From positions 1-24,775 of IMG/VR virus record IMGVR_UViG_2541047936_000008: a stretch of 24,775 nt of DNA. One strand, given 5' to 3'. The stretch's first letter is position 1, and each line of letters starts with the position of its first letter. Shown here piece after piece: positions 3,001-6,000 of this stretch. A program made the position numbers. The DNA comes from a virus (taxonomy: Duplodnaviria; Heunggongvirae; Uroviricota; Caudoviricetes).

Positions 3001-6000
3001 AAATATCTAACTTAACTACGCCATCATTATTATAAAGGCTGCTAAATTTTGGTAGTTCAACTTTTAAAGAATCATAGTTCTTTAGAAGAAGAGGGGAGTC
3101 AAATTTAATAACTTGTAGTATCCCTTTCCCTTCAACCTCCATATTGATTGAAGATATAGCAATTGCATTATCTCTTTTATTAGTCAGGATTATGGTTGAT
3201 ATATGCATGTCATATATTTTACTTACATTTGCTGAATACGATACTGTCACCTTTTTTGATATTTTTTGTACGCCAAAATATATAGTGAAGCCTGCGGCAA
3301 AAATAGATAAGAATTTAATGTCAAATAAGGACCATAACCACATTAGTTGCTCAATTGCTTCAGAGTTAATCATTTGCTTTACCATTATCGCTGTAATACA
3401 ACACATGTGCGTATATATACGCAATGCAATTATTTTGCAAGTGCTTCATTTACTATCTATAGCTACGTCACGTTATCGTTTAATGGTTCTTTATAGGGGC
3501 GGCAATAGTTAAAATTATCGCTTCCGTAAACGCCCCCGCAGGGGCATTTGCAGTAATGAAATCAGGCGGTGAAAGTACCAATAAAGGTTTCTACTTTGCT
3601 GTCTTTGAATTTTTCAACAAGCAGATCACGAAATTCGTTAGCCATTTCTTCCTGCACTGCTTCCAGCTGAATAATGCGCAGAACCAGTACAGGGCGATCA
3701 CCAGTGATAATGCTGAGTCGTAATTTAAATGGACGTTCTTTCAGGCCTTCAAACGGAACGCATTTAAATTCAAATGCCACTGGCATAATGTCTTTGGTCT
3801 TCGCTTCGACAGACTCCATCAGGGAGCGTTTGCCGCTGAAGTCATTGTCTTCAAAATCAGCAGTCTGGTTCGCTTCAATTGTGATTTTACGGACCGCCGC
3901 AGCCGCTTTTGTTGCCTGAATAGCGTCACCATTAGCATCAAAGCCCACAAGGTAGTCGGCCCAGTCTTCAATCCATTCTGCCAGTGACTTCTGGGAGTTA
4001 CGCTCGCCGTTAACAGACAACAGGGCAGAGAACGGTGCTGTCTTTTTCAGTTTGAGAGTGGCGGTGTTATCTGCGTGACCTGGTTCATCAATAGTACCCA
4101 GGTTAAGCACACTGACTGCTCGCATATTATCGGCATCGATAAAGCAGCGGGTGCCTTCATCTGCAAGATCTTTAGAATAACGGGTAAAGTCATCGATGCT
4201 GGCAGTGGAAAGCGCACCACGGAAACGGAAGCGATTTAAATTAAATTTTTCCAGATCATGAATGCGGAAATTCTCAGGCAATGCCACAGCATCGGCACCA
4301 ATCTTACTGATAATTTCATTAACACCCTGAGCAGAAATAAGGGCATGGATTTGATTAATTGCGGTTGCGTCTAAGTTCTGAGACATAATAAGTCCTCACT
4401 ATATAAAGATATTCATTGATGAGATAAATAATCGGTTAATTAAGAACGATATTAATGACCTGCTGCGCGGAGTTTTCCGTCAGGTTCACCGGCAAGAGTC
4501 AGTAATTGTCCCTGGTCTTCCTGCAGAATAGTCAGGCGACCACCGCGATTGACATACATCGGCGTTTCGGTGGTGTCTTCTTCGGAAATTTTCCCGCGGT
4601 TAGTCGGGCGAACATATGAGAGTTTGTGTTTGATTTTCACACGGTTCTCATCAAATGGTTCGATTTCCAGGTTGAGTGAGACCTTACCTTTGGTTTTCGT
4701 GTTCATCACACCTGAAGCGACTTCACTGAGAACTGCGCCGATTTTGGTTTCAAATACGCCGCCGTCCAACTCCCCGATAAATGCCTGCACATCAGTACTG
4801 CGTTCGCTAGCCATTTTGCTGCTCCTCATCATATCGACCCTGCAAGGTCGGTTGGTTTCTCCACAAAACAGAGAAGAACACCTGCGGTGGCAGCCGCCCG
4901 GATGGATTGGGTTATGAGCCCGTCGTCCGGTGATGCTCTTCTCTGTTTTGTAAAAAGAGCGGTACCAGCCGGAAGCAAGTGCACAAACTGGTACCGCCAA
5001 AGCAGTGGCTGTTGTGGTGGGGTTGTCACTCAGGCGTATGGTCAACCTGACAATCCGGTGTCCTCAACGGGGAAAGAGTAACCCCGCCATACTTACCGCC
5101 GCGCCATTTCGCGGATTACCACAACGCTGAGAGCACTTAGCCAGTTACGGCACCACACTTTGTCGCGGTTCCATAAATGCCCTCATCGTTGCACCCTGGT
5201 CTCTTCCCAGGCGTCAAACCGAATCGCCACGCTGGTTAGGCGTCTTATCAGCATCCTCATTGACTTGCACATTCCGGCTACCTGGTTTGTTTGCCCGAGC
5301 AAGGAGTGGATTGTCCCCTTTAACGTCCCCAGACCGCTAACGACGCATGTGCCATACGCCGTGTTACAACCAAATTTTGTTTAATCTTGCCTGTGGCATG
5401 TTTCTTTTAGATACATTATGTATCTCGTAGGTACATTGTCAAGTATAAAAAAACCTGCCGAAGCAGGTTATAAATATTGATTAGGCCTTTATTTGGTATC
5501 TTCTTGGTTTTCCTGAGAAAATTACTGTACCAATTATAGAGCAATTACCGTTAATCTTAATGTAAGGCTCAGGCCAGTTTGGGTTTAATGCTTTGAGATA
5601 ACGCTGTGTTCCATCTTCTATCAATCGCTTGAAGGTGGTTTCGCCTGTATCGTGCATCAATGCAATAACGTCGTCACCGTGGCAGGCAGGGACTTCGGGA
5701 TCAACAAAAATCATGTCTCCCGGGCGGTACTCATCAATCATTGAATCACCAATCACCCGCAAGATATAAGTCATTTCGCCACAGGGTACAGGGCAGGGAT
5801 AAGTTTCTGCTGTGCTCAAATCAACCTCAGAATAGCCAACTTCTTTCCATGCTCCGGCCTGTACCCATGATATGACAGGGACTAACGTTATTTGTTTGTT
5901 AGTAATTGAAACATCAGGTTTTTTTGTGATGTTTGTTGTCTGGTGTTCTTGATCAAGCCATCCGACAGGCAGGTCGAAACATTTTTCGATGTGCCGTGCC

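Follow-up and report, generated by a model that had tools for sequence, protein, structure and literature searches.

The window, by which we mean the whole 24,775-nucleotide stretch of Caudoviricetes DNA analysed here (IMG/VR record IMGVR_UViG_2541047936_000008), contains a leader at positions 4815-5410, read with the minus strand as the RNA sense, between a PL-like promoter and the first early-left gene. The initial annotation had described this leader as rich in hairpins and suggestive of a structured RNA, and the promoter, the gene start at 4814, the inverted repeats and the GC-rich hairpins were all found at the positions it had given. From the repressor gene to the first early-left gene, the locus contains the following features:

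5481-6155, S24 repressor gene, identified by a Pfam match, just upstream of the PL-like promoter
5469-5452, terminator of the S24 repressor gene, between that gene and the PL-like promoter
5415-5442, minus strand, PL-like sigma-70 promoter with -35 TTGACA (5442-5437), a 16-nt spacer and -10 CATAAT (5420-5415), 11/12 consensus matches
5398-5436, imperfect palindrome over the -10 hexamer, arms 5398-5416 and 5418-5436, 74% complementary; a probable repressor operator
5375-5119, minus strand, module A, a core of ~180 nt containing two pseudoknots, followed by a variable 3′ hairpin, roughly 250 nt in total
5007-5125, minus strand, module B, a pseudoknotted element resolved from alignments with pair counts
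4950-4998, minus strand, DicF-related hairpin and U-run (GGCGGUACCAG...CUGGUACCGC UCUUUUUAC), predicted to act as an intrinsic terminator and to form the 3′ end of an sRNA
4858-4956, minus strand, long hairpin with a stem of ~25 bp, whose 5′ arm includes the terminator U-run and which ends just before the yfdP ribosome-binding site
4812-4850, minus strand, small hairpin (4850-4835), GAGGAG ribosome-binding site and yfdP AUG
4452-4814, minus strand, yfdP homologue of 120 aa, the first early-left gene, start at 4814; phrog_204 (unknown function)

The record of phage Ayreon has a promoter annotated at the position equivalent to the PL-like promoter, from which transcription would start at about 5408. 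The yfdP start is also the one chosen by PGAP in a 99.7%-identical genome, and the encoded protein has no N-like arginine-rich N-terminus. No tRNA or tmRNA was found in the window by ARAGORN and the Rfam tRNA model, and a scan of the whole window with Rfam 15 at gathering thresholds returned only C4 and isrK, both outside the leader.

The minus-strand leader RNA folds at -235.7 kcal/mol with z = -5.35, compared to z = -2.97 for the plus strand. The strong inverted repeat noticed earlier extends to 25-nt arms (4863-4887 and 4927-4951) that are 84% complementary, the 10 bp stem (4959-4968 with 4988-4997) pairs at 10 of 10 positions, and the GC-rich hairpins reported near 5075-5112 are CCGCG/CGCGG (5114-5099) and CGGGG/CCCCG (5086-5068). 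The hairpins listed in the initial annotation belong to the 3′ half of the leader, which resembles a DicF locus; module A was not singled out there.

Module A is built from seven helices, two of which are pseudoknots, and its elements, all on the minus strand, are:

5185-5365, minus strand, core, a double-pseudoknot RNA scoring 204.9 bits with covariance model R1
5361-5357 with 5345-5341, minus strand, helix P1
5352-5347 (GCACAU) with 5272-5267 (AUGUGC), minus strand, pseudoknot PK1
5337-5329 with 5285-5277, minus strand, helix P2
5243-5229, minus strand, hairpin P6
5237-5234 (AACC) with 5220-5217 (GGUU), minus strand, pseudoknot PK2
5211-5195, minus strand, hairpin P7 with loop GGAAGAG
5119-5192, minus strand, 3′ domain P8, an irregular, long hairpin (GCAACG-GAGGGCA...UGCUCUC-CGUUG) that holds a variable insert and has GUUGUGG at its end

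The alignment of homologues for compensatory base changes, which had been proposed as a check on the structured RNA, gave strong covariation in module A. Across 86 distinct sequences, 97.1% of cells were paired, compared to 29-43% when the partners were slid, and 19 pairs carried double (compensatory) changes where the slid controls had 2-7; none of 500 shuffles reached any of the five measures. PK2 covaries even though it had been left out of the model, and ~35 unpaired nucleotides are invariant. The frequent G-U pairs are consistent with the minus strand as the RNA sense. The P8 stem is kept in other members of the family despite different sequences and inserts, and the P8 domain is found without the core in phage F1055.

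Several other pairings were considered and set aside. A long-range alternative proposed by RNAalifold for the 5′ part of module A (columns 6-8 with 103-105 and 23-25 with 91-93) was rejected in favor of the local helix P1 and PK1, on account of the covariation (G-C to A-U) between columns 9 and 21 and because the variable column 11 is left without a partner. A GGCG/CGCC pairing conflicts with the covarying P7 helix, and an all-against-all covariation scan yielded mostly phylogenetic noise apart from PK2. The covariance-model check against Rfam was run at gathering thresholds and permissively (E up to 10) and found no family for any part of the leader; module A had no match even at E up to 10, either in the leader or, by permissive scan, in its SPN1S copy. 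Literature searches (exact strings, DicF-like, P1 ban operon, yfdP) returned nothing that describes either module. Module A is a new RNA, previously undescribed and absent from Rfam.

Module B follows as a second conserved structure, with these elements:

5125-5118 with 5018-5011, minus strand, closing stem P0
5114-5099, minus strand, hairpin CCGCG/CGCGG
5092-5087 (GUAUGG) with 5041-5036 (CCAUAC), minus strand, helix Pa
5086-5068, minus strand, variable hairpin CGGGG/CCCCG
5053-5048 (UUGUCA) with 5028-5023 (UGACAA), minus strand, helix Pb

Gathering and permissive scans of the leader gave no Rfam match for module B. The element lies 9-10 nt upstream of DicF in phage Evi and in K-12 Qin, and is also found upstream of the 'dicF-like region' of phage P1; the sequence preceding DicF is a conserved pseudoknot. 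Lengthening helix Pa by a GGCG/CGCC pairing was rejected because it overlaps the CCGCG/CGCGG hairpin. GGCGGUA, which occurs in both module B and DicF, was considered as an ops/RfaH-like signal and rejected: ops requires a G at its eighth base, and that base is absent.

The suggestion that the leader might include an sRNA is borne out to the extent that a DicF-related, sRNA-like terminator hairpin is present. It has a 13-bp stem (-24.8 kcal/mol, z = -3.97) followed immediately by UCUUUUU, and we predict it to be an intrinsic terminator on the basis of a GC-rich hairpin directly followed by a U-run. The hairpin was also found by our own scan; its loop of 13-19 nt exceeds the loop limit of the standard terminator tool. 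It shares UUGGCGGUAYCAGUUU and a CCGCYCUUUUUA tail with DicF, but it differs in the body of the hairpin and does not have the 5′ single-stranded target-pairing seed, a gap of ~19-22 nt that includes UUUCUGGUGACG. The Rfam DicF model (RF00039) gave no match within window positions 4700-5500 even at E up to 10; its gathering threshold is 48 bits, and the genuine DicF copies of Evi and K-12 reach 76 bits.

The long hairpin that follows folds at -51 kcal/mol (z = -7.65) and differs from F1055 by a compensatory change from G-C to A-U. The order of module B, terminator tail and then a long stem before the next gene is that of dicBF in K-12 Qin, where the untranslated region undergoes termination as well as processing by the RNases III and E, and where an RNase III site yields the 72-nt DicF (PMC5069750). 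The long stem in the window is placed like the RNase III site after DicF and ends before the ribosome-binding site of the next gene. It is a candidate RNase III site and a candidate 5′ boundary of the yfdP mRNA.

With conserved pairing in modules A and B, we returned the leader to the question of coding, since a conserved small protein gene or stems that are not conserved among homologues would each have spoken against an RNA. Variable columns in the leader alignment are spread over codon positions as 31/34/34 (chi-square p = 0.91), and indels are frequent and mostly of 1, 2 or 4 nt rather than multiples of three, so neither codon periodicity nor an intact frame is kept. The initial annotation had reported only short ORFs; its view that they are not coding stands, and the length does not, as stop-free frames of up to 100 codons are present. 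It is next to negligible, in our estimate, that the leader codes for a small protein or several, such as those in the annotations of Ayreon, mEp460, cdtI and F1055. Such proteins could draw on stop-free frames of up to 100-119 codons and on the depositors' hypothetical proteins, but these small ORFs are mutually inconsistent, differing in strand and position between near-identical phages, PGAP calls no gene in the leader, and the conservation is explained by the covariation of paired columns. The structured RNA reading is thus supported for a conserved, folded, non-coding region downstream of the PL-like promoter. What does not hold is the picture of a single leader unit, as the region is mosaic, with four or more modules that each occur on their own in other phages. 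The leader is a non-coding chain of independently mobile RNA modules whose structures are conserved.

Nor is the arrangement atypical for a phage, as had been supposed: module A is present in 1376 of 5426 complete E. coli genomes (about a quarter) and in 593 plasmids. Its carriers include phage P1, epsilon15-like phages, lambdoid phages and E. coli prophages, and Shiga-toxin phages. It was detected only in phages and prophages of Enterobacterales, with one record labelled as a Stenotrophomonas phage; a scan of species-representative genomes gave only 4 matches, one of them a chance Arthrobacter match rejected by R1. Junction and loop nucleotides are extremely conserved across phages of Escherichia, Salmonella, Klebsiella and Enterobacter.

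In the genomic contexts of module A, the distance from the -10 hexamer to helix P1 clusters at 0-14 nt and 45-54 nt (53 nt in the window), a promoter score of at least 9 was obtained in 51 of 154 contexts compared to 11 in shuffles, and three independent contigs, as well as mEp390, have an HTH-S24 repressor gene directly upstream. A terminator-like hairpin within 700 nt downstream was found on the sense strand in 143 of 188 contexts, compared to 59 of 188 on the antisense strand. The 3′ surroundings vary: the core may be succeeded by a terminator, by the P8 hairpin or straight away by a ribosome-binding site, and in some contexts the ribosome-binding site of an ORF comes only ~30 nt after P7. 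The genes downstream (yfdP, a ParB-like gene, tRNA-Arg, ban) are unrelated. A tRNA adjoins module A in 55 of the 125 copies of the first scan, including phage P1, where module A is internal to an operon, directly after a tRNA and ~2.3 kb from Pban, and the Uetakeviruses, where the order is promoter, module A, tRNA-Arg, terminator. One contig has tandem copies, epsilon15 retains only a stub, and the window has a single copy with none on the PR side, as judged by the R1 scan.

Given this position, we tentatively favor a reading in which module A acts in cis on the elongating RNA polymerase, in the manner of HK022 put, and allows it to read through the leader terminator. Once the repressor is inactivated, RNA polymerase would start near 5408 and transcribe module A, which would fold co-transcriptionally, and would then meet the DicF-type intrinsic terminator at about 4950. 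Terminated transcripts would be RNAs of about 455 nt, from which stable pieces would be processed in the way seen with dicBF, while read-through transcripts would be cleaved within the long hairpin, RNase III being the probable enzyme, and this cut would define the yfdP mRNA. Module A would then be a larger, unrelated functional analogue of put RNA, letting phages without a detected N pass both the terminator in the leader and those further along the early-left operon. Among the early-left genes, searches of Pfam and PHROGs for N, a small and diverse protein, or another antiterminator gave no match, and none is annotated in relatives. Phages of the LLS/ST64B type also carry yfdP and yfdQ, and the authors of that study speculate on put-like RNA antitermination (PMC12315714). 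The unrelated downstream genes fit an element that acts on general machinery rather than on one gene.

As with put, module A is a structured nascent RNA upstream of terminators and immediately downstream of a PL-like promoter, in a lambdoid phage without a detected N. A put-type antiterminator suppresses pausing and termination in cis through binding to the zinc-binding domain of the RNA polymerase beta′ subunit. Put works untethered, so cleavage from the transcript would not preclude function (PMC9378689). Against the cis reading, module A has no sequence similarity to put and is ~2.5 times larger: putL and putR are ~70 nt with two stem-loops each compared to ~180-250 nt with two pseudoknots, blastn of the leader against the HK022 immunity region (word size 7) gave only chance matches of 10-23 nt, and R1 had no match in HK022. 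The missing PR-side copy, the copies beside tRNAs in phage P1 and the Uetakeviruses, the ~2.3 kb that separate the phage P1 copy from Pban, and the stub in epsilon15 also count against it, and in the dicBF operon partial termination suffices without any antiterminator (PMC5069750). A wider version of the idea, which we regard as possible but doubtful, is that, right at the onset of prophage induction, module A reprograms the RNA polymerase or some other core machine of the host and so serves as an RNA-only substitute for lambda N. N-less lambdoid phages (Stx2c and some Stx2a converting phages among them), podoviruses like epsilon15 and phage P1 would share it, and it would be exchanged as a cassette with tRNAs, module B and DicF-type sRNAs.

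The frequent adjacency to tRNAs suggests release as a separate RNA and agrees equally well with a trans-acting role. In that case module A would be a discrete, stable RNA made in bulk at the onset of lytic growth, released by RNase P, RNase E or termination, that binds or sequesters a host or phage factor (for instance as a protein sponge or anti-defence decoy), with the rest of the leader being a DicF-type sRNA locus. We consider this rather unlikely, though a serious contender. The tRNA genes are natural processing sites, terminators usually follow module A, the Uetakevirus arrangement resembles a self-contained non-coding RNA operon, and the extreme conservation of junctions and loops across phages of four genera hints at a binding partner that is itself conserved. 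A precedent is offered by ROOL and GOLLD, which are large ornate RNAs from phages and prophages and often lie next to tRNAs, although module A is smaller, matches neither of them in Rfam, and is promoter-proximal in repressor-controlled operons of an essentially Enterobacterales family. On the other side, the lambdoid copies lie 0-55 nt from the promoter in the sole known route to the early-left genes, a ribosome-binding site that can follow P7 so closely is leader-like, and no partner is identifiable. The 5′ leader position could also be that of a riboswitch aptamer that senses a host metabolite or ion and gates early-left expression through a downstream terminator or ribosome-binding site. 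The highly conserved pseudoknotted core with variable 3′ 'expression platforms', the tandem copies, and the potential of GUUGUGG to pair with CAACG or CCACAAC are all consistent with an aptamer. Such a function is nevertheless improbable, as the downstream genes have no metabolic theme, a tRNA or the 120-nt module B often intervenes between module A and the terminator, the phage P1 copy is internal to its operon, and there is no resemblance to any Rfam riboswitch.

The remaining explanations assign module A either no special function or a catalytic one. In the former, stable hairpins shuffled by recombination would do no more than attenuate transcription, make the mRNA more stable and offer sites to RNase III and RNase E, much as the untranslated region of dicBF does; the 3′ half of the leader is homologous in layout to that region, with its documented termination and processing, and the leader is made of modules that have junction sequences in common, GUUGUGG for example. 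This would leave unexplained both the ~35 invariant unpaired nucleotides and the two pseudoknots kept by compensatory changes over 86 sequence clusters in unrelated phage types, and we judge it quite improbable. The compact double-pseudoknot architecture, the invariant junction nucleotides and the location at RNA module boundaries and beside tRNAs are what might be expected of a catalytic RNA, self-cleaving or not, with a role in processing the early transcript, such as the release of an adjacent tRNA or sRNA. Here, RNase P and RNase E already explain processing at tRNAs and DicF (PMC5069750), the distance from the module boundary to the core is not fixed since the P8 insert varies, and no known ribozyme family is matched, which makes catalysis highly improbable.

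Module A occurs in classical models (phage P1, E. coli prophages, Shiga-toxin phages) but carries no annotation there, and it is a candidate, open to direct test, for a new RNA-based regulator that acts on transcription or on host factors. How lambdoid phages without N pass their early terminators was raised explicitly as a question in 2025 (PMC12315714). Phages of this sort include the ST64B, SfV, cdtI, LLS and Stx2c types, and module A is placed exactly where the answer would be expected. DicF-type terminator hairpins, tRNAs and the module A and B RNAs form interchangeable cassettes in repressor-controlled early operons, and the annotation of such 'intergenic' regions should change accordingly.

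The lambda nutL/N system and the rrn boxB-boxA-boxC signals provide a further comparison, as they too are promoter-proximal RNA signals, nutL being one of an early operon, and render RNA polymerase resistant to terminators, although the corresponding activity of module A is putative, no N homologue was found and boxB is much smaller than module A. An exact boxA is absent from the window, where a loose CGCUCUUUUUAC within the tail of the terminator is all that resembles one. In one lineage a perfect rrn-type boxA (UGCUCUUUAACAA) lies just downstream of module A; this association is real and belongs to one small lineage (3 unique contexts), in which antitermination may therefore be Nus-dependent rather than module A-dependent.

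The leader extends, in minus-strand RNA sense, from a promoter beside an HTH/S24 repressor gene to yfdP, and two structured RNA elements, modules A and B, lie between them:

5481-6155, minus: HTH/S24 repressor gene (Pfam Peptidase_S24)
5469-5452, minus: terminator of the S24 repressor gene
5442..5415, minus: near-consensus promoter, TTGACA-16-CATAAT
5398-5436: imperfect palindrome overlapping the promoter
5375-5119 (core 5365-5185), minus: module A, a double-pseudoknot RNA
5125-5007, minus: module B, a pseudoknotted element
start at 4814, minus: yfdP, 120 aa, with a GAGGAG ribosome-binding site, the next credible gene after the promoter

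PGAP annotation of a 99.7%-identical genome places the yfdP start identically and annotates nothing between the promoter and yfdP. The initial annotation had described only short ORFs in this region; stop-free frames of up to 100 codons do exist, but they carry no coding signature. Small ORFs annotated here by depositors contradict one another, three-base periodicity was not found in the variable alignment columns (31/34/34), and indels are mostly of 1, 2 or 4 nt. The leader is non-coding, and the idea that it encodes a protein is hardly credible. The inverted repeats reported earlier were recovered at 4863-4887/4927-4951 and 4959-4968/4988-4997, and the fold was more stable relative to shuffled sequences for the minus-strand RNA (z = -5.35) than for the plus strand (z = -2.97).

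A comparison with phage records by blastn located the parts of the leader separately in different phages, indicating that the leader is a mosaic (RNA position 1 = window 5410):

RNA ~36-292: module A, found in phage P1 (directly after trnI, before ban) and in phiV10/TL-2011b-type Uetakeviruses (directly before tRNA-Arg)
RNA ~286-408: module B, found in phage Evi, in PPompW prophages and in phage P1, there right behind Pban, a promoter under C1 control
RNA ~412-596: module C, accompanying yfdP in SfV, SfII and ST64B

At least part of the leader was matched in 4738 of the 5426 complete E. coli genomes and the whole leader in 903. In the lower half of the ranking of those 4738 genomes, most sampled rows had module B alone covered. 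The phages ST64B (L140, 828-1642) and SfV (L141, 1269-1685) are relatives without module A that have unannotated cI-yfdP leaders of ~420-815 nt, in which Rfam gave no match.

Scanning IMG/VR with an invariant 19-mer as query yielded 125 copies of module A, and after a second scan the collection comprised 193 unique cores in 86 clusters at 95% identity. The covariance model R1, built from 26 module A sequences, gave 204.9 bits for the window copy and 79-205 bits for every other copy, with no match in HK022, ST64B, SfV, F1055, Evi or K-12 Qin. Among 86 distinct sequences, 97.1% of cells were paired, compared to 29-43% in slid controls; 19 pairs were changed on both sides (2-7 in controls), and the covariation score was 0.180 (0.02-0.035 in controls). 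Cell counts, here and for module B, are higher than the number of independent events, since many of the sequences share descent. None of 500 shuffles matched module A on any of five measures. The alignment of module A (A6) was fitted to the covariance model, with the pseudoknots lying outside that model, and the structure consists of the following parts:

P1: 5-bp hairpin
PK1: GCACAU in the P1 loop with AUGUGC ~80 nt downstream
P2: 9-bp helix that encloses a variable domain
P6: hairpin with (M)ACC in its loop, which is paired to GGU(K) of the next junction as PK2
P7: hairpin with loop GGAAGAG
P8: long hairpin, its inserts variable, with GUUGUGG as its 3' end

PK1 is invariant and thus unproven by covariation, while PK2 covaries in three of its four pairs, though outside the covariance model. 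Approximately 35 nucleotides are invariant, chiefly in junctions and loops, and many of the G-U pairs are compatible with the minus strand only. In F1055 (L003, 2390-2520), SPN1S (L134) and the compared sequence L094, two hairpins within the P8 insert, GCUGGUUCGAUUCCAGAC and GUCCGUUCAAUUCGGAC, resemble T-arms; in the L094 copy no tRNA or tmRNA was called by ARAGORN, Rfam reported only the adjacent tRNA in the SPN1S copy, and F1055 has this domain without the module A core.

Module A is present in 1376 of the 5426 complete E. coli genomes and in 593 plasmids of PLSDB, most of which are ~75-120 kb long, like P1; it is hardly ever annotated. Hosts of the phages carrying it include Escherichia, Salmonella, Klebsiella and Enterobacter, with divergent copies in Salmonella SPN1S and PAT1, a Klebsiella phage, mEp390 and Citrobacter; one scan of species-representative genomes placed it in Escherichia and Citrobacter only. 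One IMG/VR contig (L148) has two minus-strand copies, at 3990-4156 and 4797-4961, ~800 nt apart within ~1.5 kb that is free of convincing ORFs. Rfam 15 gave no match to module A, even at E up to 10, and a search of full-text literature that included exact sequence strings, and in which older work is incompletely covered, returned no description of it. Structured RNAs in phage early leaders are a known kind of element; this family appears to be undescribed so far.

The surroundings of module A were compared across phages. A sigma-70-like promoter scoring at least 9 of 12 precedes it in 51 of 154 unique contexts, compared to 11 in shuffles, with the end of the -10 hexamer 0-14 nt or 45-54 nt from P1 (53 nt in the window), and independent contigs and mEp390 share the order HTH-S24 repressor gene, terminator, operator/promoter, module A. 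The P1 copy lies within the C1-controlled ban operon. A tRNA directly adjoins 55 of the 125 first-scan copies, namely tRNA-Arg(UCU) on the 3' side or tRNA-Ile2(CAU) on the 5' side. The core is followed by P8 and tRNA-Arg in 42 of 242 cases and by P8 and module B in 39; elsewhere an ORF with a ribosome-binding site follows ~30 nt after P7. In one small lineage (L173, L229 and L232, with a variant in L226), the core is succeeded by a small hairpin and, ~125 nt to the 3' side of the module A anchor, by UGCUCUUUAACAA, a perfect boxA of the rrn type; this boxA pattern occurs only 20 times in the 4.7 Mb of fetched DNA. Terminator-like hairpins lie within 700 nt downstream in 143 of 188 unique contexts in sense, compared to 59 of 188 in antisense, and the phiV10-type unit reads promoter, module A, tRNA-Arg, DicF-like terminator hairpin, second terminator and small ORF. 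Epsilon15 (L262, AY150271, 978-1253) has a truncated module A, reduced to the P1 part and followed by a terminator and an ORF; its record carries three annotations immediately upstream of this remnant, namely a repressor operator, a site for IHF and an 'RNaseIII mRNA processing' site. In phage P1 (L005, ~3215-3225), alignment A1 has the 10-nt UUUCUGGUGA, identical to the 5' end of the sRNA DicF (RF00039), in the stretch from module A to the ribosome-binding site of ban.

In phage Evi, and also in K-12 Qin, between ydfC and dicB, module B precedes DicF at a distance of 9-10 nt; in phage P1 it is found upstream of the 'dicF-like region'. A third IMG/VR scan gave 73 unique cores, and the next element was true DicF in 40 cases, a window-type hairpin in 25 and another element in 33. 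In its structure, GUUGUGGU/ACCACAAC forms the closing stem, CCGCG/CGCGG makes up an invariant hairpin, a second hairpin is variable, and the helix GUAUGG/CCAUAC crosses the helix UUGYCA/UGRCAA to give a pseudoknot; pairing is seen in 94.9% of cells, compared to 29-58% when slid, and 8 pairs carry double changes, compared to 0-4. In mEp460 (L002, 2756-2905), the same closing stem holds a different insert, B-prime, that is 99% identical in P1-like contigs (L012, L087) and is similar at its start to what directly follows DicF in K-12 Qin (L128, 2705-2740). Among the segments 5192-5188, 5126-5118 and 5018-5011, the motif GUUGUGG can pair with upstream CAACG at the P8 base or with downstream CCACAAC in the module B closing stem, a possible conformational switch, and it also marks the junction at which a tRNA takes the place of module B in Uetakeviruses.

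The 3' half of the leader is a variant of the DicF locus in that the layout is shared, while the tests for DicF itself (Rfam score, 5' seed) failed. The segment 4998-4950 forms a 13-bp hairpin (-24.8 kcal/mol, z = -3.97) with UCUUUUU directly behind it. Both its UUGGCGGUAYCAGUUU and its tail can be aligned with DicF, but the 5' seed of DicF is missing and the Rfam DicF model did not match the segment; F1055, Uetakeviruses and phage P1 have other hairpins with the same tail at this position. Directly after it, the hairpin at 4956-4858 (-51 kcal/mol, z = -7.65) has that U-run within its 5' arm, a 3' arm ending ~30 nt before the yfdP ribosome-binding site and, compared with F1055, a compensatory change from G-C to A-U. 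K-12 has the same layout after DicF, with a stem, GUGAAUUUUGUGAUG...CAUCACAAAAUUCAU, that stops short of the ribosome-binding site of dicB. In dicBF, read-through transcripts are cut by RNase III to give a 72-nt DicF, and termination gives a 53-nt form (PMC5069750); by analogy, RNase III may act on the long hairpin of the window.

Following inactivation of the repressor, transcription would start near 5408 and modules A and B would fold. A fraction of polymerases would stop at ~4950, giving a ~455-nt RNA that is later processed, and the others would read on past this point, with cutting of the long hairpin defining the yfdP mRNA. We tentatively propose that module A acts in cis on the elongating polymerase, as a functional counterpart of the put antiterminators of HK022, because its promoter-proximal position is that of putL (PMC9378689), no lambda-type N protein was detected in phages carrying it, terminators usually come after it, the downstream genes are unrelated to one another, and its invariant nucleotides point to a partner that is conserved among enterobacterial hosts. 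The authors of the LLS study, whose phages have the early-left genes yfdP/yfdQ in common with these, independently bring up antitermination of the put type for their phage (PMC12315714). Against this reading, module A has no similarity to put, is present in only one copy in the window, lies far from its own promoter in phage P1, and stands beside a boxA in one lineage, while in the dicBF operon partial termination is apparently enough unaided.

The tight tRNA link equally suggests an RNA that is released, which also counts against action in cis, and a stable RNA acting in trans is an unlikely but serious alternative. Module A falls outside put and every Rfam family, membership having failed, and may, though we consider this doubtful, represent a new RNA class that reprograms polymerase or another host machine. 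That module A is a riboswitch is improbable, passive accretion of the leader is slightly more so, and a ribozyme is very improbable.

Elsewhere in the window, Rfam identified adjoining isrK (64 bits, 7398-7474, plus) and C4 antisense RNA (82 bits, 7499-7586, plus) within the end of an Ash-family ORF (7038-7874), a pair that resembles the P1/P7 immI-type antirepressor control module and also occurs in mEp460 and a Citrobacter prophage. The prophage looks truncated at 8915-9774. The match of the ORF at 8915-9295 to a transcriptional-activator PHROG is confined to the N-terminal part of the latter, and that of the ORF at 9178-9774 to the tail-sheath phrog_165 is confined to positions 303-493; these partial matches suggest a deletion that fused the early region to tail genes.
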